Shown in pieces: positions 16,266 to 61,900 of a stretch of 64,000 nt of DNA (position 1 is the first letter of the stretch; each line of letters opens with the position of its first letter). The notes under the pieces are model-generated. The model did no database searches. It was given only the letters and a program-made list of their open reading frames with translations, and was not told the origin of the DNA. Location: contig JBNRSN020000001.1 of the NCBI GenBank assembly GCA_051313645.2, positions 428,048,001-428,112,000 on the forward strand. Reading direction: 5' to 3'. The stretch is from Centroscyllium fabricii. Taxonomy: Eukaryota. Both the position numbers and the translations under genes were made by a program.

Positions 16266-19200
16266 TGTGGTAACCCATATTTGGGTATCCCTTATATGGG
16301 ATACCATTGTTGTATACCTGTGTGCTGATATGTTGCTGGAGCCAGGTCAGCCACACCTCTGACTCCTCCCTCCAGGTGGAGCACCATAAAGGTGTGGGCT
16401 GATCGTCCATTCATTCTTTTCCTGTATGAATGTACCGAGGAGACACCTCTATTCTTTATTAATTAAAAGCCTAGTATTAACGGTAACTACGAGTCGTCTT
16501 TTAATTAAGTCTTCGACCTCGCTACAATTTTAATTAATAATTTTACAATGGAGACCAAAGCAGTAAACCCTCGGATACTGGACATCAGCCCCCACGATGC
16601 TGCAGCACAGGTCAACTTCAGGCTCTGGCTCAAAGTTCTGGAGAACTACATGGAAGAAGCCAAGGCTGAAACAAGTGCGCAAAAACTTAAAGTACTGCTG
16701 GCACATATCTCCGGCAGGGTTTTCTCCCTCATCGAAGAACACACATCGTACGAAGAATCGGTGGAGACCCTCAAGGAGCACTATGTGCGCCCTACTCACA
16801 AAGTCCACGGCCGCCACCTACTAGCGACCCGACCTCAACAAACCGGTGAGTCAGACCTTGATTTTGCGCAAGCACTCCGAAGCATGATAAAAGCCTGTGG
16901 CTGTACGGGCGGACTGAATCTGAGACAGGAGGAAAACCTCCTCCTCCGGGACGCGTTCGTTACAGGGCTAAAAAACCCAGTCGCCCGTCAGAAACTACTG
17001 GAACAGGACAGCCTGACCTTTGAACAGGCAGTCAATCTAGCACAAATGGTGGACGGGGCCCACGCCAAAAACCAGACGTACGGCGGGGCCGGCTATCATG
17101 CTCCAAGCATTTGGGCTGCGACCCAGCAAGAGCCACGGATTGAGACCCCCACTATGGCTGCGTCAGCCACCACGGACTCTAAGTATAAACACTGCTATTT
17201 TTGCGGAAAAGGCTTGCACCCCAGGGCAAAGTGCCCAGCCAAGACAGAGACCTGCGGCCTCTCCACCCTGAGAATCGATCCCCCCTCGCTGTTCGCCAAC
17301 CTCGATCCCAAGTGCAAACCTATCGCCACTAAGAGTCGGCGGTATAGCGAGGGGGACCGCACGTTTATCAGGTCGGAGGTAGGGCGGCTGCTAAAGGAGG
17401 GGATTATTGAGGCCAGCACCAGCCCCTGGCGGGCCCAAGTTGTAGTCGTTAAGACTGGTGAGAAACACCGGATGGTTATCGATTACAGCCAGACCATTAA
17501 CCGCTACACCGGGCTCGACGCCTACCCCCTTCCCCGCATCTCAGAAATGGTCAATCAGATCGCCCAGTACAAGGTGTTCTCCACGATCGACCTTAAATCG
17601 GCGTATCACCAGCTCCCGATTCGGAAAGCCGACCGCCCCTACACCGCCTTCGAGGCGAACGGCCGGCTCTACCACTTCCTCCGGGTCCCCTTTGGCGTCA
17701 CCAACGGAGTGTCAGTGTTCCAGCGGGAGATGGACCGCATGGTTGATCACAATGACTTGCAGGCCACCTTCCCTTACCTGGACAATGTGACCATCTGCGG
17801 CCACGGCCAGCAGGACCACGATGCCAACCTGGCCAAATTTCTTGACACGGCGGCTAAGCTGGACCTTACGTATAACAAAGACAAATGCGTCTTTAATACA
17901 ACCCGGCTCGCCATCCTCGGATACGTGGTGGAGAACGGGGTCCTCGGCCCCGACCCACAGCGTATACGACCCCTTCAGGAACTGCCCCTACCTCACAACC
18001 CCAAAGCCTTGAAGAGAGCTCTAGGATTGTTCTCCTACTATGCACAATGGGTCCCGCAGTTCGCAGACAAGGCTAGACCACTCCTCAAGGCTGCCGTCTT
18101 CCCTCTTTCTATAGAAGCTCAAACGGCATTCGAAAAGATAAAAGGAGATATCATCAAAGCGACCATGCACGCTGTTGATGAATCCATCCCTTTCCAGGTG
18201 GAGAGTGACGCTTCGGACTTTGCCCTTGCTGCCACTCTGAATCAGGCAGGCAGGCCCGTAGCGTTTTTCTCCCGCACCTTACAGGGACCCGAAACTCGCC
18301 ACTCAGCAGTGGAAAAGGAGGCCCAGGCCATTGTGGAGGCCGTGCGCTACTGGCGTCATTACCTGGCCGGTAAGCGTTTTACCCTGCTCACCGACCAACG
18401 GTCGGTGGCGTTTATGTTTAACAATAAACTACGGGGTAAAATCAAGAATGACAAGATCATGCGGTGGCGGATCGAACTCTCGACTTACGAGTATGACATT
18501 CTTTACCGACCAGGTAAACTCAATGAACCACCGGACGCACTGTCCAGGGGAACGTGCGCCAGTGCCCAGCTAGACCGGCTGAAGGACCTCCACGACCGCC
18601 TCTGCCACCCGGGTGTCACCAGACTCGCCCATTTTGTCAAAGCTAATAATCTCCCCTACTCCATCACGGAGATCAAGGCTATGACCCGAGATTGCCCTGT
18701 CTGCGCTGAGTGCAAACCCCACTTTTTCCGGCCAGACACGGCGCATCTCATTAAGGCCACTCGCCCCTTCGAACGCCTCAGCGTAGACTTCAAAGGCCCC
18801 CTTCCCTCCACCGACCGCAACTCATACTTCCTCACGGTAGTGGACGAGTTCTCCCGTTTCCCCTTCGCATTCCCCTGCCCAGACATGACGAGCGCAACGG
18901 TGATCAAACACTTCACCACGCTGTTCGCCATCTTTGGTTTCCCCAGCTATATCCATAGCGACCGGGGGTCATCGTTCATGAGCGATGAACTGCGTCAGTT
19001 CCTGCTCCAGAAAGGGGTTGCCACGAGCAGAACGACCAGTTACAACCCCCGGGGGAACGGCCAGGTAGAAAGGGAGAATGGGATTATCTGGAAGGCGGTC
19101 ACCCTGGCCCTCAAGTCCAGAGGCCTTCCAGTGTCCCACTGGCAGGCAGTCCTCCCAGGCGCATTGCACTCTATTAGGTCGTTATTATGTACAGCTACTA

Positions 19201-19970
19201 ATGCCACCCCGCACGACCTTGTTTTCTCTTTCAGCAGGAGATCATCTTCGGGGACGGCACTCCCACCATGGCTGACGACCCCCGGGCCGGTGTTTCTTAA
19301 AAGGCACGTTCGGGGCCACAAGACGGACCCCCTGGTGGACCAGGTACAGCTCCTACACGCCAACCCACAATATGCTTTTGTGCAGTTCCCAGACGGGCGT
19401 GAGGACACCGTGTCCATCAGGGACCTGGCTCCGGCCGGCAACACCGCCACGGCTCCCCCTATTGGCCAGCAAGTCGACCTGCCATCGACCGGGGAACGTA
19501 CAGCACCGACGGAGGCAGACTATTCGGCCATGGGGCCATCACAACCAACATCGGAACCCCGGCGGTCGGCAAGACAGACGCGGCCGCCGGAGAGACTCAT
19601 TGTGAACTGTTCACTGTCTTCAACCCCCCCCCCCCCCCCCTGGACTCAAAGTTTTCAACAAGGCATTCACCCCGCCCCCCCGGACTCAAAGTTTTTAACA
19701 AGGGGTGAATGTGGTAACCCATATTTGGGTATCCCTTATATGGGATACCATTGTTGTATACCTGTGTGCTGATATGTTGCTGGAGCCAGGTCAGCCACAC
19801 CTCTGACTCCTCCCTCCAGGTGGAGCACCATAAAGGTGTGGGCTGATCGTCCATTCATTCTTTTCCTGTATGAATGTACCGAGGAGACACCTCTATTCTT
19901 TATTAATTAAAAGCCTAGTATTAACGGTAACTACGAGTCGTCTTTTAATTAAGTCTTCGACCTCGCTACA
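16266..19970 (+). mobile_element. Gypsy B, identical LTRs, protease-deleted
   Basis: 261-bp LTRs 16266-16526 and 19710-19970, no difference seen by eye; 5-bp TSD GTTAT; PPT AAGGGGTGAA. Confidence 0.96.
16548..19772 (+). CDS. Gag-RT-RNase H-integrase fusion lacking protease (1074 aa)
   Basis: One knuckle then TCGLSTL; IDLKSAY, PFGVTNG, YLDN, ESDASD, HxxxCH...CPVC, DFKGP/SDRG/ERENG; ORF runs into the 3' LTR. Confidence 0.88.
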   Translation: METKAVNPRILDISPHDAAAQVNFRLWLKVLENYMEEAKAETSAQKLKVLLAHISGRVFSLIEEHTSYEESVETLKEHYVRPTHKVHGRHLLATRPQQTGESDLDFAQALRSMIKACGCTGGLNLRQEENLLLRDAFVTGLKNPVARQKLLEQDSLTFEQAVNLAQMVDGAHAKNQTYGGAGYHAPSIWAATQQEPRIETPTMAASATTDSKYKHCYFCGKGLHPRAKCPAKTETCGLSTLRIDPPSLFANLDPKCKPIATKSRRYSEGDRTFIRSEVGRLLKEGIIEASTSPWRAQVVVVKTGEKHRMVIDYSQTINRYTGLDAYPLPRISEMVNQIAQYKVFSTIDLKSAYHQLPIRKADRPYTAFEANGRLYHFLRVPFGVTNGVSVFQREMDRMVDHNDLQATFPYLDNVTICGHGQQDHDANLAKFLDTAAKLDLTYNKDKCVFNTTRLAILGYVVENGVLGPDPQRIRPLQELPLPHNPKALKRALGLFSYYAQWVPQFADKARPLLKAAVFPLSIEAQTAFEKIKGDIIKATMHAVDESIPFQVESDASDFALAATLNQAGRPVAFFSRTLQGPETRHSAVEKEAQAIVEAVRYWRHYLAGKRFTLLTDQRSVAFMFNNKLRGKIKNDKIMRWRIELSTYEYDILYRPGKLNEPPDALSRGTCASAQLDRLKDLHDRLCHPGVTRLAHFVKANNLPYSITEIKAMTRDCPVCAECKPHFFRPDTAHLIKATRPFERLSVDFKGPLPSTDRNSYFLTVVDEFSRFPFAFPCPDMTSATVIKHFTTLFAIFGFPSYIHSDRGSSFMSDELRQFLLQKGVATSRTTSYNPRGNGQVERENGIIWKAVTLALKSRGLPVSHWQAVLPGALHSIRSLLCTATNATPHDLVFSFSRRSSSGTALPPWLTTPGPVFLKRHVRGHKTDPLVDQVQLLHANPQYAFVQFPDGREDTVSIRDLAPAGNTATAPPIGQQVDLPSTGERTAPTEADYSAMGPSQPTSEPRRSARQTRPPERLIVNCSLSSTPPPPPWTQSFQQGIHPAPPDSKFLTRGECGNPYLGIPYMGYHCCIPVC

Positions 19971-20107
19971 GTTATGCTGATAGGGTTAGAAGAGCAAAGA
20001 CGGGAGGAGGCTCAAGTGGAGGATAAACACTGGCATGGACTGATTGGGCCAAATGGCCTGTTTCTGTGCTGTAATATCCTATGTAATCCTTTGTAAAGAG
20101 CAAGTGG

Positions 20108-22085
20108 TAAGAACATAAGAACATAATAAATAGGAGCAGGAATAGGACACTTGGCCCCTCGAGCCTGCGCCTGCGCCGCCCTTCAATAAGATCATGGCTG
20201 ATCTTGGGCTCAAAGCCACTTCCCCGCCCGCTCCCCATAACCCTTCACTCCTTTATCTTGTAAAAATCTGTATCTCCACCGTAAATGTTTTCTGGGGCAG
20301 AGAATTCCACAGATTTACGATCCTCTGAGAGAAGAAATTCCTCCTCATCTCAGTTCTAAAAGGGCGACCCTTTATTCTGAAATTATGCCCCCGTGTTCCA
20401 GATTTCCCCACGAGGGGAAACATCCTCTCTGCATCTACTCTGTCGAGCCCCCTCAGTATCTTATATGTTTCAATAAGATCCCCTCTCATTCTTCTAAATT
20501 CCAATGAGTATAGGCCCAACCTGCTCAACCTTTCTTCATAAGTCAACCCCCTCATCTCTGGAATTAACCCAGTGAATCATCTCTGAACTGCCTCCAATAC
20601 AAGTATATCCTTCCTTAAATAAGGAGACCAAAACTGTATGCAGTACTCAAGGTGTGGTCTCACCAACACTCTGTACAGTCATAGCAGGACTTCCCTGCTT
20701 TTATACTCCAACCCCCTAGAAATAAAGGCCAACATTCCATTTGCCTTTTTGATTACTTGCTGTACCTACATGCTAACATTTTGTGTTTCATGCACAAGGA
20801 CCCCCGGGTCCCTCTGAACTGTAGCATTTTATTTTCTCTCTCCATTTAAATAATAATTTGCTTTTTTATTTTTCCTGCCAAAGCGTATAACCTTGCACTT
20901 TCCCACATTATACTCCATCGGCCAAATGTTTGCTCGCTCACTTAGCCTGTCTATATCCCTTTGCAGATTCTGAGTCCTCTGCACAACTTGCTTTCCCACC
21001 CATCTTTGTATCATTCATAAACTTGGTTACATTACACTCAGTCCCTTCATCCAAGTCATTAATATAGATTGTAAATAGTTGAGGCCCCAGCACCGATCCC
21101 TGTGGCACCCCACTAGTTACCGTTTGCCAACCGAAAATGACCCATTTATCCTGACTCTCTGCTTTCTGTTAGTTAGCCAATTCTCTATCCATGCTAATAT
21201 ATTACCCCCAACTCTGTGCGCTCTTATCTTATGTAATAACCTTTTATGTGGCACCTTATTGAATGCCTTCTGGAAATCCAAATACACCACACCACTGGCT
21301 CACACCTATCTAACCTGCTCATTACATCCTCAAATTACTCCAGCAAAATTGTTAAACATGATTTTCCATTCATAAAAGCTGACTCAGCTTGACTGCATTA
21401 TGATTTTCCAAATGCCCTGCTACTGCTTCCTTAATGAAGGACTCCAGCATTTTCCCCAATGACAGATGTTATGCTAACTGGTCTATAGTTTCCTGCTTTC
21501 TGTCTCCCTCCTTTCTTAAACAGGGGTGTTACATTTGCAGTTTTCCAATCCACTGGGACCTCTCCAGAGTCCAGGGAATTTTGGTATATTGCAACCAATG
21601 CACCCACTATCTCGCAGCCATTTCATTTAAGACCCTGGGATGCAGGCAATCTGGTCCTGGGGACTTGTCGTCTTTTAGTCTCATTATTTTACCAAGTACT
21701 TTTTCCTTCATGATAGTGATTGTCTTTAGATCCCCCCTTCTCTGTGGCCCCTTTATTGTCCATTATTGGGATGTTGTTAGTGTCTTCTACCGTGTAGACA
21801 GATTAAAATATTTGTTCAGAATCTCTGCCATTTCCCCGTTCCCCATTATTAATTCCCCATTCTCATCCTCTAAGTGGCTAACATTTACTTTAGCTACTCT
21901 CTTCCTTTTTATATACCTGTAGAAGCTCTTACTTTCTGTTTTAATATTTCTTGCCAGTTTACTCTCATAATTCATCTCTTTATTATATTTTTAGTCATCC
22001 TTTGTTGGTTTTTTAAAATTTTCCAATCCTCCGGCCTCCCACCAATCTTGGCAACATTGTATGCCTTCGTTTTCAATTGATACCA
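20108..22085 (-). mobile_element. 5'-truncated CR1 (ORF2 3' half), decayed
   Basis: YESKLARNIK..., MEYNVGKC, YEERLSRLGLYSLEFRR; (TGTTCTTA)n tail near 20108. Confidence 0.88.
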
Positions 22086-23559
22086 GATGGTGGCAGAGGA
22101 GGAGCAGGGAGCTGCTGACCAGATGGTCATGTGAGTGCCGTTTATGATGCTCTACACCCTTACGAACCCTGTCAACCAGGCAATGTTCTGTACTTTGTCA
22201 AGCTGGCTTCTCCTTTCCATATTGAAAGTGATGAGTGTGTTGTCTCTTGCAAACAAGAGCTCTGTCACTTGCTTTATGCATCTGTGGCTGCCAACTGACT
22301 GATTTGTCATATGTCGTTGTTGCTGGCTTGGAAGGATCCAATGGCATAAAGGTTTAACGGACTAGTGACCATCACTATGATATAAGTTGTCTGTCACTCA
22401 ACTTCCACATTGCTATGTGCAGCATCCTTTATGAAGCAGAGGCATAAAAGACAGGCCTCCTCTGGCATGTTCTGTAAAGACTGTCTGGGACAGTAATGGG
22501 CGGTTCTGGAGTTAAGTATAAGTGCGTACTTAACCTATCTTTCTTGATCCCTCAAGAGGTGTTCTTCTCCAAATCTAGGATTGCCAATGGAACTCCCAAA
22601 GGAATTCCCACCCTTCCCACTTCTGTTGCTGAAAGTGAAATAGCAGCGGAAAGCAAGAATATTGTAAGAAATAAAAGCTGTACAAAGCAATACAGCAAAA
22701 AAAATTAATGCACCAACCAAATGACAGATAAAGCACGGGCTAGCACCACATAGAAAAGGGGGCAAGATGGTGCTTATTGCAATATGTGACTAATTTGAAT
22801 AATTGATTGGCTTAATAAGGCTTGTGCTGGTTACCAGTGCCACCTTTGAAAACCTAGCAATGTTCTTTGCAGCAAAGTGGAGTGCGCTGAGAATTGGGCG
22901 GGATAGTCTATGTGCTCAGCTTTGCAACCTATGCTCCCCCATAGTGAAACTCTGTGGCACCAGCTTAGTCTTGTAAATTTGGGACCATCAAAGCATGAAA
23001 GGTAATCCTCCAACCGAAATGAGGTTCTGTGGGGTCAGGGGGTTTGGGGGGGGGTGGGGGGGGTAGGGTGGCGGGGGCAGCTTCCCTGCTTCTTTGAGGT
23101 GTAAGAAGCACCGGCATCGATTTTGTGCCTGGATATCGGGATTTTACGCTGGAAGTTAGAGTGGCTGGTGAATATGTTGACTAAGTATGGGTGGATGTAT
23201 TCAAATTATGTATTAATGGTGAAATGTCACACAATATATTTCCTGTCAGTAGTGCCGTAGCAATGCTGGACATTAGGAATGCTAATGCATTCCTTATGTT
23301 CAGTGCTGCTATAGAGTGCAGAACATGATTGAAAATATAACCCTGCACCCACTAAGCCCAAGATATGGATTTTGTTTTGTGAATAAAACCTTGCCTTCAG
23401 CTACTTCAGAGGAAGCTATCCACCATGAGACTCAAGGCCGGCAGCAGCAATTTCCCACCTTTTCTTGATGTGGGCACCCTGATTCTGGCAGGAAACCTGC
23501 TGAAATTATTTAAATAAAACCGATCACCATCTCACCACTGCCCTAGACAATCAACTTCA

Positions 23560-26507: not shown

Positions 26508-29500
26508 TGTGATAAACCCTTTTATCATATGTATATAGTTAACTGACATGTATCGTTATGTATCAATGTAATACCTATACTGTAATGTGATTCCTGGGAC
26601 ATGCCCAGGTTAGCTCCGCCCACGACTCCTCCCTCCCTGGAGGAGGTATATAAGTGGCTACCACCCATCCCCCAGCCATACCTGGGGACAGTCGACTAGC
26701 TGGTGCATGTTCCAGTTAGTAGTCAATAAAAGCCTAATTGTTTCTTCATCTAACTACTCACCTTCGAGGTCGTTATTTCAGGTCACAATTTTATTGACTA
26801 CTTTTGAAAATGGATACTATGCTCAAGCCAGCAACGTTTGAATTGGACCCCCGAACACCAGGAGCATCGAACACTTTTACACACTGGCACAGTGTCTTCG
26901 ATGCATACCTAAGAGCGAACGCAGCGGTCGTGGTGACCGAAGAGGACAAACGACGGCTCCTCAACGCCCGGGTGGGCCCTCAGGTGTACTCCATGATCGT
27001 GGACGCCTCATCTTACCTGGATGCCATCAGGATTCTCAAAGCTGAGTACAATCGGGCACCTAATATCGTCCACGCTAGGCATATCCTTGCCACCAGAAAA
27101 CAACAACCTGGTGAGTCAAGCGTGGAGTTCCTAAGAGCTCTCAGAATACTGTCGCGGGCCTGCGACTGCAGAGCGCTAACGGCCCCGGTCCATGCAGACA
27201 GTCTCATTAGAGATGCATATGTAACAGGCCTCAGGTCGGACTATGTGAGACAGAGACTGCTAGAGCAGAACGGCCTTGACCTGCAGGCAACCGCGGACCT
27301 GGGGAATGCGCTGGATGTGGCCTCACTAAATCTGTCATCTTATTCGAGTAACTACACGGGCCCAGCCCCGCCATCTTGGACAATGCCGGCGCAATGACCG
27401 GCAGAAGAATTAATTGCAGCTGCCCACGCGAAGACGGCAGCCAAATGTTACTTTTGTGGGCAGTCTCAGCACCCGAGACGTAACTGCCCTGCTAGAGAAG
27501 CGGCCTGTTCGAAATGTGGGAAGAAAGGACACTATGCAAAGGTCTGTAAAGCAACCACAAAATCGAAACCGGGCAGCGCCGCGTGTGGAACATGGGAGCA
27601 GCCACATTGGGCTCACCCATCCCCCACTCAGCACCCCTCGTGGCAGCAGTCGCCATATTGGACTCAGCCTCCCCCTCCACAGTACACCGCATGGCGGCAG
27701 CCATCTTGGGGACCAGCCCCGGAGGACTACTCTTCGGATCAAGACGAATCGGCTGACCCAGTATTGGCATCGGTGACCATCGACCAGGACAAGACTCAGT
27801 CACTGGAAAAATCTTCGGATCAAGACGAATCGGCTGATCCAGTATTGGCATCGGTGACCCTCGATCAAGACAAGACTCAGCCACTGGAAAAATCTATGAT
27901 GCCGGTGGAAGTTAATGGTCAAGAGGTGGAGTGCCTGTTCGACAGTGGGAGCACAGTAAGTTTTATTAATCCTAATACTGTAAAGCGTCTCTCCCTTAAA
28001 GTAATACCTGCGCGCCAGAGAATATCCATGGCTTCCAAGTCAGAATCTGCAGACGTCTCCGGGCGCTGTGCAGTAGCACTCAATGTCCAGGGCGCGCTGT
28101 TTAATAATTTTAGCTTTTACGTGCTGCCACAGCTCTGCGCCCCCTTACTCCTGGGACTGGATTTCCAGTGCCATCTCCAGAGCGTTACTATGGCGTTCGG
28201 TGGGCCCCTTCCTTCGCTTACGGTTAGAAACCGCAGCCCAGCGCGGCACCCCCAACGCACTACCTGTGGCCTCTCGACCCTTAAGGTCGCCCCTCCATCC
28301 CTCTTTGCCAACCTCACCCCAGACTGCAAGCCCGTCGCCACCAAGAGTAGGCGCTACAGTGCTGGGGACATGGATTTTATAAAGTCCGAGGTGCAGCGCC
28401 TCCTAAAAGAAGGGGTCATCGAGGCCAGTAATAGCCCCTGGAGGGCGCAGGTAGTGGTAGTCAAAACCGGAGAGAAGAACCGGATGGTTGTGGACTACAG
28501 CCAGACTATAAACCGGTTCACCCAACTAGATGCCTACCCCCTCCCCCGGATAGCGGACATGGTGAACCAGATCGCGCAGTTTAAAGTGTTTTCCACCATA
28601 GACCTTAAATCTGCCTATCACCGGCTTCCCATCCGCTCAGAGGACCGTCTCTATACAGCCTTCGAGGCTGACGGTCGCCTCTACCAATTTCTTAGGGTCC
28701 CGTTTGGCGTCACGAATGGGGTCTCGGTCTTCCAAAGGGAGATGGACCGAATGGTCGATCGGCACGGGCTGCGAGCCACTTTCCCTTACCTCGATAATGT
28801 GACCATTTGCGGCCATGATCAGCAGGACCATGACGCCAACCTCCAAAAATTTCTCCACACCGCCAAAACGCTGAACTTAACCTATAACACAGAAAAATGT
28901 GTGTTTAGTACCACCCGCCTGGCCATCCTCGGCAGCGTTGTGGAGAATGGGGTCATCGGTCCCGACCCGGACCGCATGCGCCCCCTCATGGAGCTCCCCC
29001 TCCCCCACTCCCCCAAGGCCCTTAAACGGTGCTTGGGATTTTTCGCTTACTATGCCCAGTGGGTCCCCAACTATGCGGACAAAGCTCGCCCACTACTCAA
29101 ATTGACCTCTTTTCCCCTGTCTGCAGAAGCCAACTCGGCGTTCTGTGGAATTAAAAACGATATTGCTAAAGCCACGATGCACGCTGTGGATGAGTCCGTC
29201 CCGTTCCAAGTGGAGAGCGATGCATCGGACTTTGCCCTGGCCGCCACCCTTAACCAGGCGGGCAGACCCGTGGCCTTCTTCTCGCGTACCCGCCAGGGCC
29301 CCGAGACCCGTCACTCCTCAGTCGAGAAGGAGGCCCAGGCCATCGTTGAAGCAGTGCGGCACTGGAAGCACTACCTGGCCGGCAAGCGTTTTACCCTGTT
29401 GACTGACCAACGATCAGTCGCGTTCAAGTTCAACAACAAGGAACGGAGTAAAATCAAGAACGACAAGATATTAAGGTGGAGAATTGAACTCTCTGCGTTC

Positions 29501-31257
29501 AATTATGATATCTTGTACCGGCCCGGGAAATTTAACGAACCCCCAGACGCCCTATCCCGCGGTACCTGTGCCAGCTCACAGGCTGACCGTCTCCAAACCC
29601 TTCACAATGACCTCTGCCACCCGGGGGTCACCAGGTTGGTTCACTTCGTGAAGTCCCGCAACCTCCCCTACTCTATCGAAGAGGTCAAGACCCTGACCAG
29701 CAATTGCCAGGTCTGCGCGGAGTGCAAGCCGCACTTCTACCGGCCAGACCGGGCGCACTTGATCAAGGCCACTCGCCCCTTTGAACGACTCAGCGTCGAT
29801 TTCAAAGGACCCCTTCCCTCCTCCAACAGGAATGTGTACTTCCTCAACATAATTGATGAGTACTCCCGCTTCCCCTTCGCCATTCCTTGCCCGGACATGA
29901 CCTCCGCCACTGTTATCAAAGCCCTCAATAGTATCTTCTCCCTGTTCGGCTATCCCAACTATATCCATAGTGACTGGGGGGCCTCTTTTATGAGTGATGA
30001 GCTGTGTCAGTTTCTGCTAGCGAAAGCCATCGCGACTAGCAGGACTACCAGCTACAACCCCCGGGGGAACGGACAGGTCGAGAGGGAGAACACCACTGTC
30101 TGGAAGGCCATCCAGTTAGCCCTACGGTCTAAAGGCCTCCCAGTCACCCGCTGGCAGGACGTCCTCCCTGAAGCGCTCCACTCTATCCGGTCCCTCCTGT
30201 GTACTGCCACTAATGCCACCCCTCACGAACGACTTTTTGCCTTCCCCAGGAAGTCAGCTTCCGGGACCTCGCTACCATCGTGGCTACTATCCCCGGGACC
30301 GGTCCTGCTACGGAAGCACGTGAGGGGACACAAGGCAGATCCCCTGGTCGAACGGGTCCACCTCCTGCACGCCAATCCCCAGTACGCCTACGTGGCATAC
30401 CCCGATGGGAGGGAGGACACCGTGTCCATAAAGGACCTGGCACCAGCGGGAGTCCCCAAACACAGCCCCGCTCAGCAGCCCAAGCACCCAAGAAGCCCCG
30501 CTCAGCAGCCCGCGCCCCCAAAACGTCCTGTTACGCTCCCCCAGCCACCGACGCCAAGGTACGCTCCCCGGCATGTGGACCCAGTACCCCAGTATGCCCG
30601 CACGACACCTGCGAGCAGCACGGCGTGGCAGCCAGCTTGGATCCACAGCGCGCGCCCCCTAGAGTCAGAGGACAAAGGAGAGAGCGCGCCCCCTGCTGTC
30701 AGAATAAGGGCACCACCACCCAGAAGTAATAATTTAACGACCACCGCTCGTCAACCGGCACCAGCACCACCACAGCAACCGACCCGGCCAGCCACCCCGC
30801 GACCACGGACACCACCAGCGGTGCAACGATCGACGAGGATCACCAAACCGCCGGAACGACTTAACCTTTAATTAAAGAACTTTTCCTTTTCACCCCGCCG
30901 TACTTTTGTGGATTAAAGAATTATTTTTCTCTCTTTCCTTTCACCCCGCCGGACTTTCGTTTTAAAGAAGGGGTGAATGTGATAAACCCTTTTATCATAT
31001 GTATATAGTTAACTGACATGTATCGTTATGTATCAATGTAATACCTATACTGTAATGTGATTCCTGGGACATGCCCAGGTTAGCTCCGCCCACGACTCCT
31101 CCCTCTCTGGAGGAGGTATATAAGTGGCTACCACCCATCCCCCAGCCATACCTGGGGACAGTCGACTAGCTGGTGCATGTTCCAGTTAGTAGTCAATAAA
31201 AGCCTAATTGTTTCTTCATCTAACTACTCGCCTTCGAGGTCGTTATTTCAGGTCACA
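26508..31257 (+). mobile_element. Gypsy C, complete
   Basis: 280-bp LTRs 26508-26787 and 30978-31257 (2 differences seen); 5-bp TSD GGGAG; PPT AAGAAGGGGTGAA. Confidence 0.96.
26804..30871 (+). pseudogene. Single-frame gag-pol of Gypsy C with one TGA at 27395-27397
   Basis: ORFs 26804-27397 and 27764-30871 share a frame; knuckles CYFCGQSQHPRRNC follow the stop in frame; protease LFDSGS; RT YLDN; RNase H; integrase. Confidence 0.9.
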
Positions 31258-43825: not shown

Positions 43826-44224
43826 AAACGTACTCATTTAGTACTTCAGCCGTGCCCTCTGCCTCCATGTGTAGGTCTCCATTTTGGTCCCTAATCGGCC
43901 CCACCCCTCCTCTTACCACATGTTTATTATTTATATGCCTATAGAAGACTTTTGAATTTCCTTTTATGTTGGCTGCCAATCTATTCTCATACTCTCTCTT
44001 TGCTCCTCTTAATTTTCTTTTCACTTCCCGGCTGAACTTTCTATATTCAACCTGATTCTCACTTTTATTCTCAACCTGACATCTGTCTCTGGCTCTTTTT
44101 CTGTTTCATCTTACTTTCTATCTCTTTCATCATCCAGGACACTCTGGCTTTAGTTTCCCTTCCTTTTCCCCTCGTGGGAATCCATCTTGACTGTACCTGA
44201 ACCATCTCCTCTTTAAAGGCAGCC

Positions 44225-47200
44225 TGTAGTGCCAGCAAGGCCTAGAAACCACGCGTGAGCCAGAGAGCTAGAGAAAACACTTGTTTAATGCATAAGAGTT
44301 AAACAGGAAAGAGAGTGAACTACTCGAAACAAGCTTATTTAAACTGCCCGCCGTTAGTGACGTCATCACGCAGGCAGACGTGGTGACGTCATCGCGTCAC
44401 CCGGATGAGCGGGGCTCTGCCCCGCGGTGTTTCCGTGGCGGATTCGGTGTCCCAGTGGGCGTGCCGCCACACAGCTCCCCCCCAGAATCCGTCCGGGAGG
44501 AATAGAAAAGAGTCTATGTGAGCCGTTGGGGTGGCCGGATGATGCGGCCGGCCCGTGTTGTGCGTTGCTTCTGGTTCTGCGGTGGAGTGTGGGCGGGTGT
44601 TGTTGCGGGAGGGCGTCCGCGTTGCGGTGGTTGTGCGGGGACAGTCGTCTCGCCCGCTATAACGTGTGCCGGCTTGAGCCGGTCTATTGTAACAGTTTCT
44701 GTCCTGTTGCCCATTTGAAGCTGGAAAGCTTTAGCTCCCGCCCGAAGCACTCTATAGGGGCCATCGTATGGTGGCTGTAGTGGTGATCGGTGTCCGTCGC
44801 GCTGGACGAACACAAATTTTGCATTTTTAATGCCGTCTGGCACTCGTGCTGCCGGCTCTCCATGCCGGGCCACTGGTAGTGGCTGGAAAGCTCGTGCCGG
44901 GTTGGCAAAGTCTTTTAGGTACTGGTCGGCTGACCAGGGAGCGTTTGGTTTGGCTAAAAATTCACCCGGCACTGTTAGGGCCTGGCCGTATACGAGTTCT
45001 GCTGCCGAGGCATTTAGGTCCTCTTTGACTGCCGAGCGCAGCCCGAGGAGAACCCATGGGAGACGGTCGGTCCAAGACGCATCCTTGAGGGTGGCTCGCA
45101 GTGATGCCTTCATAGATCGGTGGAACCGTTCGCAGAGCCCGTTAGCTTGTGGGTGGTATGCGGTGGTTCGATGCAAGGTTACCCCGAGATCGCGGGCGAT
45201 GGCCGCCCATAGTGTTGACGTGAACTGGGGTCCTCTGTCGGAGGTGATGTCGGTGGGCACGCCGAAGTGGGCGACCCAGGTGGCGATGAACGCCCTGGCC
45301 AAGTCCGTGGTGCCGGTGGCAGCGAGGGGGACTGCTTCTGGCCAGCGAGTGTTGCGGTCGACCATGGTCATTACGTGCGTGTGGCCCCGGGATGGCGGTA
45401 GTGGCCCGACGAGATCAATGTGGACGTGGTCAAAGCGTCTGGCCGGCACTTTAAATGTTTCCAGCGGTGCCCTGATGTGCTTATGCACTTTGGAGCGCTG
45501 GCAGGCAATGCAGGAGTTGGCCCAGGCGCGGACGTCTTTGCGCAGGCCGCGCCATACGAACCGGGCCGAGATAAGTTTAATCGACGCGCGGGTGCCGGGG
45601 TGGGACAGGTCATGGAGGGTTTTGAAAATGTGTCGCCTCCAAGCGTGGGGGACGACGGGCCTGGGCTGCGGCAGGGACACGTCGCAGCAGACGACGGTGG
45701 CAGCGGGGCCATGCGCGATATTGGCCAAGTGGAGGCCCGGGAGATTTGCTGCTGAGTTGAGCAGGTCGGGGTCGGCCAGCTGGTCAGCGGCCAGCTGGGC
45801 GTAATCGACCGCCATTTGGGCGGCGTTAATGGTGGGGCGTGAGAGGCAGTCAGCGACCACGTTGTCGCGGCCGGAGATATGCTGAATGTCGGTCGTGAAC
45901 TCCGACACGGCCGCGAGCTGGCGCTGCTGTCTGGCCGACCAGGGTTCGGCGACCTTAGCCATCGCGAAGGTGAGTGGCTTATGGTCGACGAAGGCTGTGA
46001 AGTGGCGGCCCTCCAGGAGGAAGCGAAAATGTTGCACTGCAAGATGGAGAGCGAGGAGCTCCCTATCGAAGGCGCTGTACTTGACCTCTGGGGGCCGGAG
46101 TTGCCGGCTGAAAAAGGCCAGGGGCTGCCACGAGTTGCTGGTCCACTGCTCAAATACGGCCCCGACCGTGTGGTCGGAGGCGTCGGTGGTGAGGGCTACT
46201 CTGGCGTTGGGCCTAGGGTGGGCTAGGAGGGTGGTGTTAGTCAGGGCGGTTTTAGTTGCGGTGAAGGCGGTGGCGGCGTCGGCCATCCACTCGACCGCAG
46301 CCTTGTTGGACTGCCCGCGTGTGGCCTGGTATAAGGGGGCCATGAGAGCGGCTGCTCCCGGGATAAAGCGGTTATAAAAATTGACCATCCCCAGAAATTC
46401 CTGCAGCCCCTTAATGGAGTGCGGGCGGGGGAATTCCTGGACCGCCTGCACCTTGGAGGGCAGGGGTATGGCCCCGGTTTGGGAAATGCAGTGGCCGAGA
46501 AAGTCAATGGTTTGGAGGCCGAATTTACACTTGGTAGGGCTTAATATTAGGCCGTGTTCAACCAGGCGCTGGAACAGGGTCCTGAGGTGCAGGAGGTGTT
46601 CCTGGGGGGAGGTGCTGGCCACGAGGATGTCGTCTAAGTAGACGAAAATGAACTTCAAGTCCCGTAGGACTGAGTCCATGAGGCGCTGGAAGGCCTGGGC
46701 CGCGTTTTTAAGGCCGAAGGGCATCCTGAGAAACTCAAAGAGTCCAAAGGGAGTGATAACGGCCGTTTTGGGAATGTCCGCCGGGTGCACCGGAACCTGG
46801 TGGAAGCCACGCACCAGGTCGATCTTGGAGAAGATCGTGCAGCCCGCTAATCTGGCGGAAAAATCCTGGCAGGGTAAATCTGTGCCCGAAGTTCTGGCCA
46901 AGTCCTTGGGTTCGTGGAGCTTGGTTCCTTGCTCTTGCAGGCATGTTTTCTCTTCTAAAGTGTCCTTTGGCTGGTGATCCTTGATCCTGCGCCAGCTTTT
47001 TTTCTTTGGAAGTCGTTCCAATTCGGGGTCACCACTGTAGCGCCAGCAAGGCCTAGAAACCACGCGTGAGCCAGAGAGCTAGAGAAAACACTTGTTTAAT
47101 GCATAAGAGTTAAACAGGAAAGAGAGTGAACCACTCGAAACAAGCTTATTTAAACTGCCCGCCATTAGTGACGTCATCACGCAGGCAGACGTGGTGACGT

Positions 47201-47282
47201 CATCGCATCACCCGGATGAGCGAGGCTCTGCCCCGCGGTGTTCCCGTGGCGGATTCGGTGTCCCAGTGGGCGTGCCGCCACA
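44225..47282 (-). mobile_element. CsRN1-clade Gypsy, gag/protease-deleted derivative
   Basis: 247-bp LTRs 44225-44471 and 47036-47282 (about 6 transitions); TSD AGCC; Trp PBS TGGTGACCCCGA; Gag start FTLP joined to RT QDFSARL. Confidence 0.95.
44514..46870 (-). CDS. Uninterrupted partial RT, RNase H and integrase frame
   Basis: Part of the 849-aa ORF; YLDD, TDASD, HPG..CIAC, DDE motifs; the Gag ATG at 46944 is in a different frame. Confidence 0.75.
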
Positions 47283-53549: not shown

Positions 53550-54157
53550 CTGACAAAACAATGGAAGTTTTACTCTATCCTTCCTGCTTGCTATTGCTTA
53601 ACGGCCCAGCTATCAGTTTGGTCCTGTGAGCAGCTTTCAGAGATCCATTCCTCTCGGGTTTCACACAGTGCCAATAGGCAGATGTGGCAACAGCATTCTG
53701 ATTCCTTTAACCAATTCTCTCTGACAGATTATGCAGTTGTTCCAAGATAACTCAGAAATCACATGGATTCAAGTAAAACTCAATAATATTATAATCCATG
53801 TTGGCTGTCAAACATTGTTTCCGAACATTGCTTTTTTATACAGGTATCTATAATTTAGAACGATTTACAGCAGCTTATTTTGATCTACAGTAATCCTATA
53901 AAGCTGTGGTGGAATTTAGCGAAAGACCAGATAGTTGTCTAAATTGACTCAATGCTCATTTTCATCCAAGAAATGTAGTGCTATACTAACTAATCATGAC
54001 TGAGGCACTGGATCAAATCTGACTGAAATGCTTCTCTTTTAATGGGCTAGCTTTTCTCCATAACCAGCCAGCTCATTTTGTTTATTTGTGTTGACCAGAA
54101 CAATATAAAGTCAGTGATGTTGCAACTATGTGACTTTCCAGCAATACTGGAAATATC

Positions 54158-55050: not shown

Positions 55051-55320
55051 ATTGAGTCTGTTGTAGGCAGTACACAAAGTTTGTGCTGCATGCTAATTTA
55101 AATGATTGCAGTGGTAAAAAAGCACTAAACACACTGTTCAGTGGCTTAGTGCCTCAGCAGGGGGTCCAAGTTTGTGCGAAGCTAGCACCAATTAAAGCTT
55201 GCCTGCAGTTCTTAAAGGCAGCTTGCACCTCTTAAAGGGAAGGTGCATTCTAGCTTCAGCAGATGGTGGAAGTGACTGGGAAACAGACTGAGGGGCAAGA
55301 AAACTGAGTGATAGCATAAC

Positions 55321-56400
55321 ATGGCAGCGAGAGAGAGATCCCAGATTTTCAGACGTAGCACTAGAGGCCTTAGTGTAGGAGGTGAATAGGACAAGAGATG
55401 TTCTCTTTCCAAAGGGGGCCAGGAGGCCCGGCAGACAAGCTGTTAGAAGGCATTGGGACCAGATAGCTGTCGTAGTCAATGCGAGCAGTGTAACTCCAAG
55501 GACCTGGATGTAGTGCCGCAAGAACTTTAATGACCTCACAGGAGTTGTCAATGCCAGTGAATTCATCTTCAAATGCCATATCCCACAAACTGCCCCACAA
55601 GCCTCACACACTGCTCAATTTACCACCACCCCATTTCTCACCTGCCAACAATCCCTATCTATCATGACTCACACCTCACATTCATATGCTCCTCCTCACC
55701 CACTTACCACTACTGTAAACCTTACACCCACATCGCACAGCTTGAACACGCTGCAAGCTATTCAACCATGACAGCCACATCAGCCAAACACATTGAACCA
55801 CACTCACTGACAAACTTCCCTTTCTCTTGCAGGACAAGGTGGCGCACAACCCTAGGATGCTGCAGCTAACTGGAGGGTGACAGGCGTGCTTCCATATCCT
55901 GACACCGCTCGAGGAGATGGTGCTCGCCATAATTGGAGTGGCTGCGACTGAGGCCATGGCCAGCGGCGGCGCAGAAACCATTGAAGATGACGGTACACTC
56001 ATACCTAATCCTCCTTCTCACATCCCACTTCCCCCTCATCCCACAATCTCTTCTGACTTACAAGCTGCAGATGCTGTGAGCATGGACCTCTTGCTTTCCG
56101 CCCCCCCCCCCACCCCCACTACCCCTCACCACAACCCTACCCTTGTGGCTTTTGCATTTCAGAGACCCAAGAAATCCAACCTGGCCAACCAGTGGTGCAA
56201 CAAGAAGAGGAGAGTGATGATGAAGAAAAAACACCATCACTCGATATGACCCTCACAGCCACCAGCTCAGATACTAGCACTACACGGACTTTAGAGGGTA
56301 GCTTAGAGGTGGGATCGAGTGGGCTGCAGCCAGTGCAGGGGGAAAGGGTAGCACAGGTGTGAGTACCCTGGTGGATGAGGTCACCCACAAGTTGGGAAGT
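55321..56400 (+). pseudogene. Harbinger-type Myb/SANT-like gene remnant with introns
   Basis: PRFSDVALEALV*EVNRTRDVLFP...WDQIAVVVNA...RTWM*CRKNFNDL; acceptor TCTTGCAG near 55832 then DKVAHN...LTPLEEMVLAIIG. Confidence 0.7.
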
Positions 56401-56416
56401 GGTCCACATGGATTAT

Positions 56417-56820
56417 GGGCGGCACGGTGGCATAGTGGTTAGCACTGTTGCCTTACAGCACTGGAGACCCAGGTTCAAATCCAGCCTCGGGTACTATCTG
56501 TGTGGAGTTTGCACATTCTCCCCGTGTCTGCGTGGGTTTCCTCCGGGTCCTCCGGTTTCCTCCCACAGTCCAAAGATGTGCGGGTTAGGTTGATTGGCCA
56601 TGATAAATTGACCCTTAGTGTTAGGGGGATTGAATATGTGGGGTTACGGGGATAGGGTGGGATATGTGTCGGTGAAGGCTCGATAGGGATCGAGGGATAT
56701 GGGGACAAGGCAGGGACGGGGTACTGGGTTTGGATGATCGGCCATGGTCTCATTGAATGGCGGAGCAGGCTCGAAGGGCCGAATGGCCTACTCCTGCTCC
56801 TATCTTCTATGTTTCTATGT
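56417..56820 (+). mobile_element. HE1-like V-SINE
   Basis: Full head, V domain and CTATGTTT tail. Confidence 0.92.
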
Positions 56821-57276
56821 TACATCCATGCATTTTAAAAGAATCTAGGGAAGAGATAGCAGAGGCATTACTACACATATTTCATAATTCATTAGAAAAA
56901 GGTGTAGTGCCAGAGGACTGGTGATAGCTAACGTAATATCTATATTTAAGAAGGGAGATAGAACATGTCCAAGGAACTATAGACCAGTCAGCTTAACATC
57001 AGTGGTAGGAAGAATAATGGAATCCCCACTAAAGGACAAAATAGAAGAACATCTAGAAACCAAAAATATAATAATGATTAGTCAGCATGGATTTCAACAG
57101 GAATGTCTTGCTTGACCAACCGCAATGAATTTTTTGAAGAAGTAACAGAGAGAGTAGACAAAGGCAATGAGGTAGATGTAATTTATCTACATTTTCAAAA
57201 GGCCTTCGATTATCCCATAATAGACTAATGAATAAGGTCAGAGAATAAGGAGTCAGGGGACAAGTAGCAGAATGGA

Positions 57277-58061
57277 AAGTGTCTGGAATTATTCAAGAAA
57301 GCTTTATAATATTATTTCTAAGCAATATTAGTTGGTCTTTATTAGCTGGTTTGGGAGACCCTCCGTGATTACCCTCGTTTGGGTCCCCAAAGTTCTGAAG
57401 CAGGCTCTACTTTTGTTGCATTAATTGTGTTTTGCAAATAATTTTCTTAGTAGTTAAAGTATTTGTACTAGTATGGGTAATTAGTATATTTGTGATAATA
57501 TAGGCAATTTAAGTAATTGAGATAGTATTGGTGACTGGAATATTTATAGTATCAGTAATTGGAGTGTTGGTTACCAGAGTATTTGTAATGGTATAGGTGT
57601 TTGAAGTATTTGCAATAGTATCGTGCAGCGTGGACCAGCAGCGGGGTCGGGGCCCAGGGAAGGTGCAGCATGGGCCAACAGCGAGGTCGGCAGGACCACA
57701 ATGCATCCTACAAAACCCAGGCAGAGAGGACCTGCGGGAAGGATGGAGGACGACAATAGGAGTATGTTTGTTTGTGTGTGCTAGGCCGTTGTAGCAGATC
57801 CTGGTCTACAATTGTCTTGGATCCCCTTGCCATTGGACCAAGACCCTGCTCTGTCAGGCCCGTGTGGTGGCTGGTGTGCAATGGCCACCCCACATTAAAA
57901 GAATTCACGCACCAGCATCGTCCACCCTTTAAAATGAAGTTTGGGACTTGGAATGTCAGGACTCTCATGGTTCGCATTGGACTCTCAGTCACCTGAGAAC
58001 TCATTTCTAATGTGGAAGCAAGTCATCCTCGGTTCCGAGGGACTGCCTAAGAAGAAGTAGA
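57277..58061 (+). mobile_element. Bipartite (internally deleted) RTE-clade element
   Basis: 11-bp TSD AGCAGAATGGA; MKFGTWNVRTLM joined to RIGL-SHLRTH-like C terminus; CCTCGGTTCCGAGG hairpin; (AAG)n tail. Confidence 0.75.
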
Positions 58062-58956
58062 AGCAGAATGGATAGCTAGCTGGCTTCAGGACAGAAAGCA
58101 GAGAGCAGGAGTAAAGTGTAGCTATTCAGAGTGGCAGAAGATAGGTAGTGGTGTTGTACAAGGATGAGTGCTGGGACCATTGTTGTTCACAATTTATATT
58201 AACGATTTAGACTTTGGAATCAAAAACACAATTTCTAAATTTGCAGATGACATCAAATTGGGGGGGGATAGTCAATACTGAGGAGGAATGCAACAACTTA
58301 CAAGAAGACATTAATAAACCTACAGAATGGGCATATAATTGGCAAATGAATTTCAACATATAAATGTGAGGTATTACATTTTTGTAGGAAGAATAGGGAG
58401 GTCACTTATTACTTGGAGGGTGCGAGTCTAGGTGGGGTAGAGGAGCAAAGGGATCTCGACGTGCAAATATACAAATCACTAAAAGTAGCAACACAGGCTA
58501 ACAAGCCATAAAAAAAGCAAACCAAGCACTAGGGTTTATTTCTAGAGGGATAGAATTGAAAAGTAAAATGCTGAACTTGTATCGAACCTTGGTTAGATCA
58601 CACTTGGAGTACTGCATACAATTTTGGTTGCTATATCAGAAAAAAGGATATAGAAGCACTAGAGAAGGTGCAGAGAAGATTTACAGGGATGATACCAGAA
58701 ATGAGTGTATACCTATCAGGAAAGGATGAACAGGCTGAGGGGTGAACTAATAGAGGTCTTTAAAATTTTGAAAGGTTTTGGTAGAATAGATACAAAGAGA
58801 GTGTTTCAACTTGTGGGGAAGAGCATAACTAGAGGCCATCAATATAAGATAGTCACCAAGAAATCAAATAGGGAATTCAGCAGAAACTTCTTTACCCAAA
58901 GAGTGGTGAGAATGTGGAACTCACTACCACAGGGAGTGGTTGAAGCGAATAGTATA

Positions 58957-61900
58957 TGTGGTGAACCATTTAGTGTAGTTCACACTGTGTTATTATTGTA
59001 TATAGTTTGAGCTAATAAATCTGTTCCTTTCTGTAAGGACCTGGACCAGCTGACCCCGCCTCCGGGTATGAGTATAAAGGAGGATGCTCCGCCCACCTGA
59101 CTCTCATTCCGGGCGGACTCATCGCGGACCAGGTCTAGTTCTTAGCTAATAAAAGCCTTCAATTACTCTTCACCAAAGACTAGCATAATTGATTTGCGCA
59201 TCAATTTTATTAGCTAAGATTTTTACAATGAGCCAGCATGTGGATGAGCAAGAACAGAGCCACCAGCCAGCTGCATCAGATAACTGGAAATCGATCCTTA
59301 AACCAAAGACTCTCGACCTCAACCCCCAGGCACCGAACGCTTCGAACGATTTTGAGCACTGACTGAGCTGCTTCGAATCGTTTCTGGTGGTGGCTGGAGT
59401 CAGCGATGCGCACAGGAGACGGGTCCTCATCTCCTGCATCAGTGGCAGGGTATATTCGATCATCAAGAATGCCACTGACTACGATGCAGCATTGGAGCTG
59501 CTGAGGGCTCGATACCTCCAGCCAGTCAACGCCGTCTACGCTCGCCATCTACTCGCCACGCGGAGGCAACAGCATGGTGAGTCGAATGAGGAGTACCTGG
59601 AGGCTCTTCAAGCTCTCGCTCTGCGCTGCGAATGTGCACCTGTTAACGCCCAGGAGCACATGGACCTCCTCGTCTGCGATGCCTACGTGGCAGGAATCCG
59701 ATCGGCCCCAGCGCGCACCCGCCTGCTCGAGCAGGATAATTTGTCCCTGAACCAGGCGGTGAAGCTCTCCAATGCGGTGGATGGGGCCCTCCGCAGCCTG
59801 CATTCGTACACGGGGCACGGCTCCCACACGGTTTCCCCAGGGCCTTGGGACTCGCGTTTAACGCCCTCGACGGAAACCGTGGCGGCCACTGCGCCATCCG
59901 GACAGCCAGCGCCTCTGAAATGCAATTTTTGTGGCCAAAACCGCCATCCACGAAGCTCCTGCCCAGGAAAGTCATCATCCTGCTCCAAGTGTGGCAAGAA
60001 GGGCCACTTCGCGAAGATCTGCCGATCGGCCCCGGAATCTGCTTGGAAAACGGCAGCAGCCTGCGATCTCCACGCCACAGAGTGGCCTCAGGTACCTGGC
60101 GCACCCCAACAGCAGTTTCCAGAACAAGTACTACTTACCTTGCCTCGGGTGCGGCCTGCCAGCGCCGTTTCCCGCGCTCCGCCATCTTCTTCATCGCTGG
60201 AATCGCGGGCGCCGTCGCCATCTTTGAGGGCGCGGCTTTCTTCATCGATGGAATGGTGCGAACGGGCAGCAGAGGCCCCGCCCCATCACGTGACGCCGCC
60301 ATCTTCCCGCGTCACGGCAGCAGCGGTCCCGCCCCATCACGTGACGCCGCCACCTTGGTGCAGGACGGCCTGCCTCTCGTCAGCAGAGGCCCCGCCCCAT
60401 CATGTGACGACGCCATCTTCCCGCGTCACGGCAGCAGCGGTCCCACCCATCACGTGCTGACGCCATCTTGGTGCAGGACAGCCTGCATCCCAACAGCAGA
60501 GGCCCCGGCGCCATCTTTGTGCAGGAAAATTTTAAAAGCACAGGCTGCTGCAGCAACTAGCAACTTCAAATCAACCTCTGCGGTCCTGGCAGCTGCAACA
60601 GACTACTCCAGACCACTTCAGCATTCGGGCGCTGGTGCGCCGTGAGCCCTTCGGTCTTCCAGACGGCTTTCTCGGAGACTCACCCACCGGTCCGAAACAC
60701 CACCGCGGCCCGCCGCGTGCGAATCACGGGCGCCGCCACCAACCGCGGACCCTGCATTGCACAAGGGCCCCAGCGTGCACACCACACTTGCCTCTATGGC
60801 CCCGAACCCATCTCTTACTTTATCAACAATGACCATCCGGGTGGAGGGGCACCTCACCCGCTGTCTGTTCGACACTGGGAGTACGGAGAGCTTTATACAC
60901 CCTGATACGGTGCGCCATTATTCCCTCAGGGTTAGGCCCGCGCATCGTAAAATCTCCCTCGCCTCCGAGTCCCAGACTGTGGACGTCATCGGCTGCTGTA
61001 CAGTCACAATTACTGTGAAGGGGACGACATACCGCAACTTTCCACTGTACGTCCTCCCACAGCTCTGTGCCCCTGTGTTGCTTGGCCTGGATTTCCAGTG
61101 CCATCTGCAGAGCTTGACGATGGCGTACGGTGGTCCCCTGCCTCCTCTCACGGTCAGCAGCCGCGACTGCCCTGCCTCACAGCCACACTCCTCTTGTGGT
61201 CTGTCTACCTTGAAGATAGACCCCCCCTCGCTGTTCGCCAACCTTGACCCTGACTGCAAGCCCATTGCAACTAAGAGTAGGCGATACAGCGCTGGGGACC
61301 GCACCTTTATTAAGGCAGAGGTTGCCCGGTTGTTGCGGGAGGGCATCATCGAGGCCAGTAACGCCCGTGGCGGGCCCAGGTGGTAGTGGTTAAGTCGGGC
61401 AACAAACAGCGCATGGTCATTGACTATAGTGAGACCATTAACCACTACACTGGGCTCGACGCTTATCCGCTTCCAAGGATAAATGATATGGTCAACCAGA
61501 TTGCTCAGTATAAGGTCTTCTCCACCATCGACCTTAAGTCGGCCTATCACCAGCTCCCCATCAGAGCTGAGGACCATAAATACACTGCCTTTGAGGCAAA
61601 TTGGCGCCTTTTTCACTTCCTCCGGGTCCCCTTTGGGGTTACCAATGGAGTTTCGGTCTTCCAACGGGAGATGGACCGAATGGTTGACCAGTACCATTTG
61701 CAGGCCACATTCCCGTATTTGGACAATGTCACGATCTGCGGCCATGACCAGCAAGATCACGATGATAATTTGGACAGGTTTCTCCGTACGGCCCAGCATC
61801 TGAACCTCACTTACAATGAGGATAAGTGTGTTTTCAACACTAACCGGTTGGCTATCCTCGGCTACGTAATTGAGAACAGGGTCCTCGGCCCTGATCCCGA

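Follow-up and report, generated by a model that had tools for sequence, protein, structure and literature searches.

The third aspartate of the reverse transcriptase (RT) catalytic triad, the last residue of the YxDD motif, is treated as near-invariant, and elements that have lost it raise the question of how they are copied. Three such elements were studied in a stretch of 64,000 nucleotides (nt) from Centroscyllium fabricii (assembly GCA_051313645.2, contig JBNRSN020000001.1, positions 428,048,001 to 428,112,000 of the forward strand), which is referred to as the window. The elements, designated B, C and D, are long terminal repeat (LTR) retrotransposons of the Ty3/Gypsy superfamily and encode an RT that reads YLDN. 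As judged from the window, the genome and related proteins, this RT very probably copies the elements itself with two aspartates, that of motif A and the first one of the motif.

A YLDN reverse transcriptase in an abundant Gypsy family

The motif FPYLDNVTICGH was found in frame on the plus strand at all three sites, each within a Pfam RVT_1 domain, which bears out the positions given in the original prediction. In a phmmer alignment YLDN falls onto the YLDD of Ty3 RT, the best match among solved structures by sequence (4ol8; E 5e-44). An AlphaFold model of the RT-RNase H (RH) part of C with a predicted local distance difference test score of 89 also had Ty3 RT as best structural match (4ol8; E 1.7e-32), indicating that the RT-RH fold is ordinary. 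The canonical Y/FxDD, a usual feature of Ty3/Gypsy elements and not a criterion for their placement, is absent and replaced by YLDN. Both CsRN1-type elements on the minus strand of the window read YLDD (Table 1), as had been noted before.

DNA identity amounts to 74% between B and C, 75% between B and D and 70% between C and D. In 630 nt around the motif, nonsynonymous divergence (dN) is 0.115-0.144, while synonymous divergence (dS) is 2.2, 2.7 and saturated for the three pairs, and dN/dS between the elements is about 0.05 or lower. Because dN is low while dS is high or saturated, the Asn is old and the RT protein is under strong purifying selection. Together with the genome-wide counts, these values uphold the earlier view of the Asn as a lineage trait and not a product of copy decay.

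In the genome (7.21 Gb), the pattern P-Y-L-x-x-[VI]-T-I-C-G was counted exactly with degenerate codons, yielding 214,286 YLDN copies, 296 YLDD, 464 YLDS, 822 YLGN and a single YLDE. YLGN, which has lost the indispensable Asp, was used as a dead-mutant control that gauges single A-to-G mutation without amplification, and YLDD falls below it; only the order of magnitude of this comparison counts, since the mutation context differs between the two sites. When 30 of the 296 YLDD copies were placed with 46 YLDN copies on a DNA tree from which the motif columns had been removed, 24 changes were required, because of which these YLDD copies are read as scattered mutants of YLDN subfamilies.

Twenty copies were picked for long open reading frames (ORFs) among the 150 best hits to C. 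Each of them reads YLDN within a single frame of 1317-1381 amino acids (aa), and in 12 every one of the 13 gag, protease (PR), RT, RH and integrase (IN) motifs examined is retained. LTR identity could be resolved in 17 copies and lies at 0.978-0.996; the autonomous YLDD masters that the original prediction had considered did not appear in this sample. Another set of 40 YLDN copies, not random and in part picked for codon variety, were taken from the start of one contig (C1); LTRs were resolvable in 20 of them (identity 0.955-1.0). Clustered at 90% identity together with B, C and D, these 40 copies fall into 17 groups, and their Asn codon has switched between AAC and AAT six times. The family would occupy about 1.0 Gb, or about 14% of the genome, if every motif copy had the median length of 4.8 kb, a rough estimate that truncated copies lower and that decayed copies and solo LTRs raise. 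By their sequence, B, C and D are members of a Ty3/Gypsy LTR retrotransposon clade that is very abundant and has a YLDN RT.

Asp and Asn across the clade

The nearest named homologues come from sharks and rays. Among the 120 nearest proteins 101 carry YxDN, 18 have Asp and one is degenerate at this position, and a search started from an Asp member returned 112 new proteins (52 Asn, 60 Asp). The motif was covered in 78 of 80 metagenome loci (40 Asn, 29 Asp, 9 degenerate); a first metagenome scan and a viral-contig scan gave no matches. Named hosts of Asn members include sharks, rays, Actinostola, Xenia, Biomphalaria and Paragonimus, and those of Asp members Trichuris, insects and Armadillidium. 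Two clade proteins (P0011, P0026) are labelled bacterial by NCBI and lie on 4-kb contigs; they probably stem from eukaryotic contamination of metagenome bins.

Of 250 RT-RH segments collected for tree building, 246 had a readable Asp or Asn position (Asx). Thinning of these at 93% identity left 197 rows, a set without BEL/Pao rows and without a named chromovirus. With FastTree a clade of 166 rows (104 Asn, 62 Asp) was obtained with support 99. The outgroup, in which the CsRN1 element of the window is found, has Asp in 28 of 28 rows, as have all three intermediate rows and nearly all of the deepest branches of the clade, and Asp is therefore regarded as ancestral. At least 15 changes between Asp and Asn occurred within the clade on this tree, and some Asp tips inside Asn groups are likely reversions. 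The Asx column is conserved but not frozen, with 15 changes compared to a median of 29 per column and none at the first Asp. Clade proteins have Asn at Asx in 103 cases, Asp in 47, Lys and Tyr in one each and never Glu. This use of Asn and Asp without Glu matches Ty1, in which, according to the accessible text of the report, D211N polymerises in vitro, with Mn2+ preferred, and D211E does not (PMC2148107).

A putative self-priming hairpin

A primer-binding site (PBS) of the TGG type was found in none of the family elements. A T-rich 13-15-mer, located one base past the LTR end, pairs with an arm within the LTR. This arm stops 44-61 nt short of the LTR end; its last bases are AATAAAA or ATTAAAA, and GCC usually comes next. 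For the analysis of arm and PBS, LTR pairs were resolved in 50 of 83 regions, and the covariation set comprised 31 distinct arm/PBS types, one misregistered copy having been dropped. Own partners formed 9.06 of 10 Watson-Crick pairs compared to 6.37 +/- 0.21 for swapped partners, a value not reached in any of 10,000 shuffles. Clear compensatory pair types were seen at six arm/PBS positions, and the pairing probability was 0.86-0.99 in 13 folds. Flanking repeats were present at 19 metagenome loci from other hosts, several of which come from one assembly, and 15 of the 19 pair at 12 or more of 14 positions. In most resolved copies a TATA-like box precedes the arm end by 82-85 nt, which suggests that the arm is positioned about 55 nt inside the RNA.

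From these data, reverse transcription in this family is likely primed by a hairpin that the element RNA itself forms. The PBS would pair over 13-15 bp with the arm in the R region of the LTR, independently of the Asn, and a cut just after the arm (...TAAA(A)), likely by the RNase H of the element, would yield the primer; in Tf1 the primer is made by an RNase H cut.

The arm holds the poly(A) hexamer, and the PBS covaries with the form of the hexamer, AATAAA or ATTAAA. Such an arrangement would conceal the 5' poly(A) site and leave the 3' site free, and the duplex might do nothing else than mask the 5' signal, with priming by another route. One of these two hexamers is present in nearly every arm of this genome, the duplex is possible only at the 5' end, and the arm end, given its distance from the TATA-like box, is probably not the RNA 5' end as it is in Tf1. 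Mere masking is nevertheless rather unlikely, as pairing begins exactly 1 nt past the LTR end, where the primer must sit, a TGG-type PBS is absent, and 7 of the 15 paired loci of other hosts have no hexamer in the arm (two of these seven have one downstream). Because these seven arms lack the hexamer, priming is favoured, and priming and masking may coexist.

The original prediction had linked the Asn to self-priming, and the Asn could be an adaptation to it, for instance to the extension of an RNA:RNA primer made by RNase H. Most of the 15 metagenome loci that form the duplex are of the Asn type, and suppressors of Ty1 D211N map to RNase H. Yet YLDD members show the same duplex between LTR and PBS, with 14/14 pairs in five of seven resolved copies of the SYLDD family of this genome (see below) and 13/14 in another Asp member (L220); the switches between Asp and Asn, at least 15, lie inside the clade; and self-primers of the Tf1 type generally carry YxDD. 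Since Asp members have the same duplex, Asn and self-priming appear uncoupled, and the proposed link, which we now consider improbable, fails.

Search for a YLDD helper

If the YLDN enzyme were dead, the elements would need a YLDD helper to copy them in trans, be it a master copy, a YLDD sister family or an unrelated Gypsy element such as CsRN1. By the two motif patterns applied genome-wide, no YLDD master or helper was found. YLDD master copies were rejected, with 296 YLDD copies, scattered mutants where sampled, standing against 214,286 YLDN copies. A relaxed pattern without Pro gave 139 YLDD sites, most of which belong to one family of about 130 copies reading SYLDDITVCG. This family falls into the same clade as the YLDN elements, and its RT-RH is about 55-60% identical to that of C. 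The sampled copies (L251-L269) are decayed, with A+T-rich coding of the motif and the same self-pairing PBS; the family might have arrived in the lineage independently.

What speaks for a helper is that the genome holds a YLDD family which belongs to this clade and shares its PBS type; B and D were inserted although they are defective, so that some trans-complementation may occur. However, the SYLDD family is about 1,500-fold rarer than YLDN, and not one of the 19 copies sampled is intact, the longest frame having 661 aa. In 20 regions of this family 8 LTR pairs were resolved, and their comparison with 50 reference LTRs gave no match at E <1e-3. Being rare, broken and unmatched in its LTRs, it is an implausible maker of 214,000 recent copies, and the search for a YLDD helper with shared LTRs, suggested along with the original prediction, thus yielded none. 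The YLDD copies with Pro are scattered and less frequent than the dead-mutant control, and a dN/dS near 0.05 with invariance of the other catalytic residues is not expected of a dead RT. Copying by a helper is therefore very improbable and already largely refuted. That the Asn is an artefact of decay or hypermutation, by CpG deamination or G-to-A editing after insertion, has a negligible chance: GAC-GAC does hold a CpG and D to N takes one G-to-A change, but CpG decay would yield GAT-GAY, which is still YLDD, about equally often while all YLDD codon forms total 296 against 214,286 YLDN, GAT AAT is read in many copies, and Asn is found in different phyla and in intact long frames.

Probable catalysis with two aspartates

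An RT that works with two aspartates receives good support from the number of copies, from selection and from the search for a helper, which found none. Among the 104 Asn rows of the tree, the motif-A Asp and the first three acidic residues of RNase H are retained in 98-100%. In the proposed mechanism the motif-A Asp and the first Asp of the motif would carry out catalysis, and the Asn would likely stand in for the lost third Asp in shape and hydrogen bonding. The metal-A site may be completed by the side-chain carbonyl of the Asn or by a bound water, as in Ty1 D211N. The original prediction had arrived at two catalytic aspartates through the young LTRs of B and C. Since B, C and D are defective, young LTRs prove only that they were copied by the enzyme of some family member, and it is the evidence from the whole family that makes this part of the prediction likely.

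Compensating residues, which had also been anticipated, did not emerge as changes that accompany the Asn. Candidate permissive changes are clade-wide and common to Asp and Asn members: a near-invariant Arg and Gln in SPWRAQ (A/S and P in the outgroup), a Ser and one inserted residue in DYSxTIN (DYR in the outgroup), NGV for NAP and a thumb Trp for Phe. The changes in SPWRAQ, DYSxTIN and NGV presumably correspond to about positions 57, 59, 78 and 157 of human immunodeficiency virus 1 RT, in the fingers and the template grip. They would predate the Asn and constitute a permissive background that made the swap tolerable and not a paired suppressor, and lineages with such changes would be able to hold either Asp or Asn. 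A Pro before the Tyr seemed by eye to be tied to the Asn, an impression that the column-wise test did not uphold.

Several points weigh against the explanation as a whole, both the two-aspartate enzyme and the priming. In Ty1, D211N lowers kpol 223-fold and transposition is lost without suppressors, as stated in the accessible text (PMC2148107). No residue was found to switch with the Asn in 748 column-residue tests (best median p 0.25), a test of low power with nine starred independent pairs only. Both helper searches hinge on the flanks of the motif, and a YLDD family with other flanks could escape them. The tree was made with FastTree and has many open forks; the covariation shuffle takes no account of relatedness, and the register of the arm was selected for best pairing. 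Activity, metal preference, transcription start and cut site were all deduced from sequence.

Comparison with known elements

A natural Asp-to-Asn change at the last position of YxDD is also present in nematode BEL/Pao elements (Cer7-Cer12; Atlas virus of Ancylostoma ceylanicum), which have identical LTRs and seem to be intact. For the YVDN of Cer7-Cer12 of C. elegans, retained activity 'remains to be determined' in the accessible part of PMC554778, and YVDN is described as a family feature of intact hookworm belpaoviruses in that of PMC9094657. In contrast to this YVDN group, the present elements are Ty3/Gypsy, have no env, reach 214,286 motif copies in a single genome, comprise Asp and Asn sister lineages and carry a self-complementary PBS. 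Their gag has a single CCHC knuckle with a second Cys-His stretch before it, and not the triple Cys-His arrangement, and the best solved match of their RT is Ty3, which places them outside BEL/Pao. Because the superfamily differs, the Asn probably arose independently of that in the BEL/Pao YVDN group.

Ty1 D211N represents the same substitution at the same residue, but it is a laboratory mutant, whereas in the present, hugely successful family Asn is the wild-type residue. As far as the accessible text of PMC2148107 goes, RNase H suppressors bring back 5-10% of transposition, and Ty3 RT is cited as similarly flexible at the active site. The background to the original prediction, according to which Asn cripples RT or blocks transposition, was overstated, as Ty1 D211N polymerises and YVDN occurs naturally in BEL/Pao.

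Covariation and folds point to a PBS complementary to the RNA of the own LTR, as in elements of the Tf1/sushi type. A further mark of the Tf1/sushi group is a place in the chromovirus branch or a chromodomain, and no chromodomain was detected by Pfam in the window elements. In Tf1, Tj1 and sushi, the PBS is complementary to RNA derived from the own LTR, no tRNA primer is used and the 5' segment of the mRNA serves as primer, according to the accessible part of PMC4600332. The arm described here differs: it is located 35-77 nt ahead of the LTR end and probably some 55 nt into the transcript, and in this genome it overlaps the poly(A) hexamer.

The CsRN1 clade has a tRNA-Trp PBS and 4-bp target site duplications (TSDs) (PMC2582038), and the PBS TGGTGACCCCG of the YLDD elements of the window fits this label. 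B, C and D do not belong to it, having a self-complementary PBS and 5-bp TSDs, with the CsRN1 element of the window in the outgroup. PwRn1 was ruled out as a member of the YLDN clade, since it is CsRN1, and published work on Saci2-like elements of tapeworms proved uninformative on the motif. Cigr-1 families occur in Biomphalaria glabrata, the accessible part of the source giving names only and neither an RT motif nor a PBS (PMC6238403), and two Biomphalaria proteins with YVDN carry the signatures of the YLDN clade. The YLDN clade may correspond to Cigr-1 (Ty3/Gypsy; Ciona, molluscs). No description of YxDN or of the present priming arm in a Gypsy clade was found in the literature searched, most subscription journals and Repbase being outside its reach.

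Elements and further features of the window

B, C and D have TG...CA LTRs, 5-bp TSDs and a polypurine tract ahead of the 3' LTR, and the domain order of C by Pfam is PR-RT-RH-IN, as in Ty3/Gypsy (Table 1). None of the three is autonomous. The protease of B was removed by an in-frame deletion with a junction near 17251-17254; this junction occurs once genome-wide, which rules out B as a spreading protease-less subfamily. Where C has its stop between gag and pol, sister copies have one uninterrupted frame of 1317-1381 aa. D has lost about 1.6 kb near 62243-62248, including the end of RNase H and the integrase.

Table 1. Features of the window (coordinates refer to the 64,000-nt stretch).
Feature	Position	Strand	Remarks
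Element B, Ty3/Gypsy LTR retrotransposon	16266..19970	+	Protease-less deletion derivative; 5-bp TSD GTTAT
B 5' LTR	16266..16526	+	261 nt; 3' LTR 19710-19970 identical
B LTR arm	~16453/16456..16468	+	Complementary to PBS; ends ATTAAAA
B PBS	16528..16540	+	Self-complementary type, not tRNA-like
B single gag-RT-RNaseH-integrase frame	16548..19769	+	Without protease
B RT motif YLDN	17775..17786	+	TAC CTG GAC AAT
B polypurine tract	19690..19709	+	
Element C	26508..31257	+	Full length, 4750 nt; 5-bp TSD GGGAG
C LTRs	26508-26787 and 30978-31257	+	278/280 identical
C LTR arm	~26716/26718..26731	+	Complementary to PBS; ends AATAAAA
C PBS	26789..26802	+	14 bp with arm
C gag, 5' part	26810..27397	+	Closed by in-frame stop 27395-27397
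C frame	27398..30868	+	Zinc knuckle, protease, RT, RNase H, integrase
C RT motif YLDN	28787..28798	+	TAC CTC GAT AAT
Element D	58957..62681	+	Frameshifted; TSD GTATA
D LTRs	58957-59203 and 62435-62681	+	240/247 identical
D LTR arm	~59139/59140..59154	+	15 bp complementary to PBS 59205-59219
D RT motif YLDN	61716..61727	+	TAT TTG GAC AAT
CsRN1-type Gypsy element	3770..8212	-	YLDD at 6175; tRNA-Trp-type PBS; comparison only
Second CsRN1-type element	44224..47282	-	YLDD at 46640; comparison only

In the gag-protease interval of D (59740-60642), imperfect internal tandem repeats of about 117 nt are present, which also occur in the relative L072. B and D both sit in the same 3' part of related fragments (15881-16265 and 58659-58956; 79% identical) resembling long interspersed nuclear elements (LINEs), with insertion points that lie at most about 50 nt apart on the repeat; this reflects either chance arising from repeat abundance or a weak target preference. 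Elsewhere, a tandem array of 45-nt units is located within G+C-rich sequence at 442-846, and an 868-aa frame of a non-LTR element with endonuclease and RT domains at 9699-12302 on the minus strand. A short repeat tail of at least 83 nt occurs at 14274-14356 and in at least six further copies on both strands; we take it to resemble the shark HE1 short interspersed nuclear element or the 3' end of CR1.

Significance

Judged by the placement of its carriers, the YLDN of Gypsy elements is a second origin of the change known from nematode BEL/Pao elements and yeast mutants. The working of natural YxDN enzymes was posed as an open question in 2005 in the accessible part of PMC554778, and a biochemical answer was not found in the literature searched. 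By its copy number and strong purifying selection, the family provides strong genomic evidence that such enzymes work. The switches between Asp and Asn in one clade, at least 15, offer natural matched enzymes for comparing rate, metal use, pyrophosphorolysis and fidelity, and the putative internal hairpin for self-priming provides another variant that can be tested. Annotation pipelines that demand YxDD would call a major active family dead.

Going further, we tentatively suggest as a possibility, and one that we would not yet favour, that a two-carboxylate RT is the selected normal state in sharks and rays, with Asp revertants having no advantage, and that priming, by a route not described for Tf1, uses a cut in R at the poly(A) signal, one hairpin both hiding this site and giving the primer. 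If this were true, about one seventh of a vertebrate genome of 7.2 Gb would be the work of a two-carboxylate enzyme.

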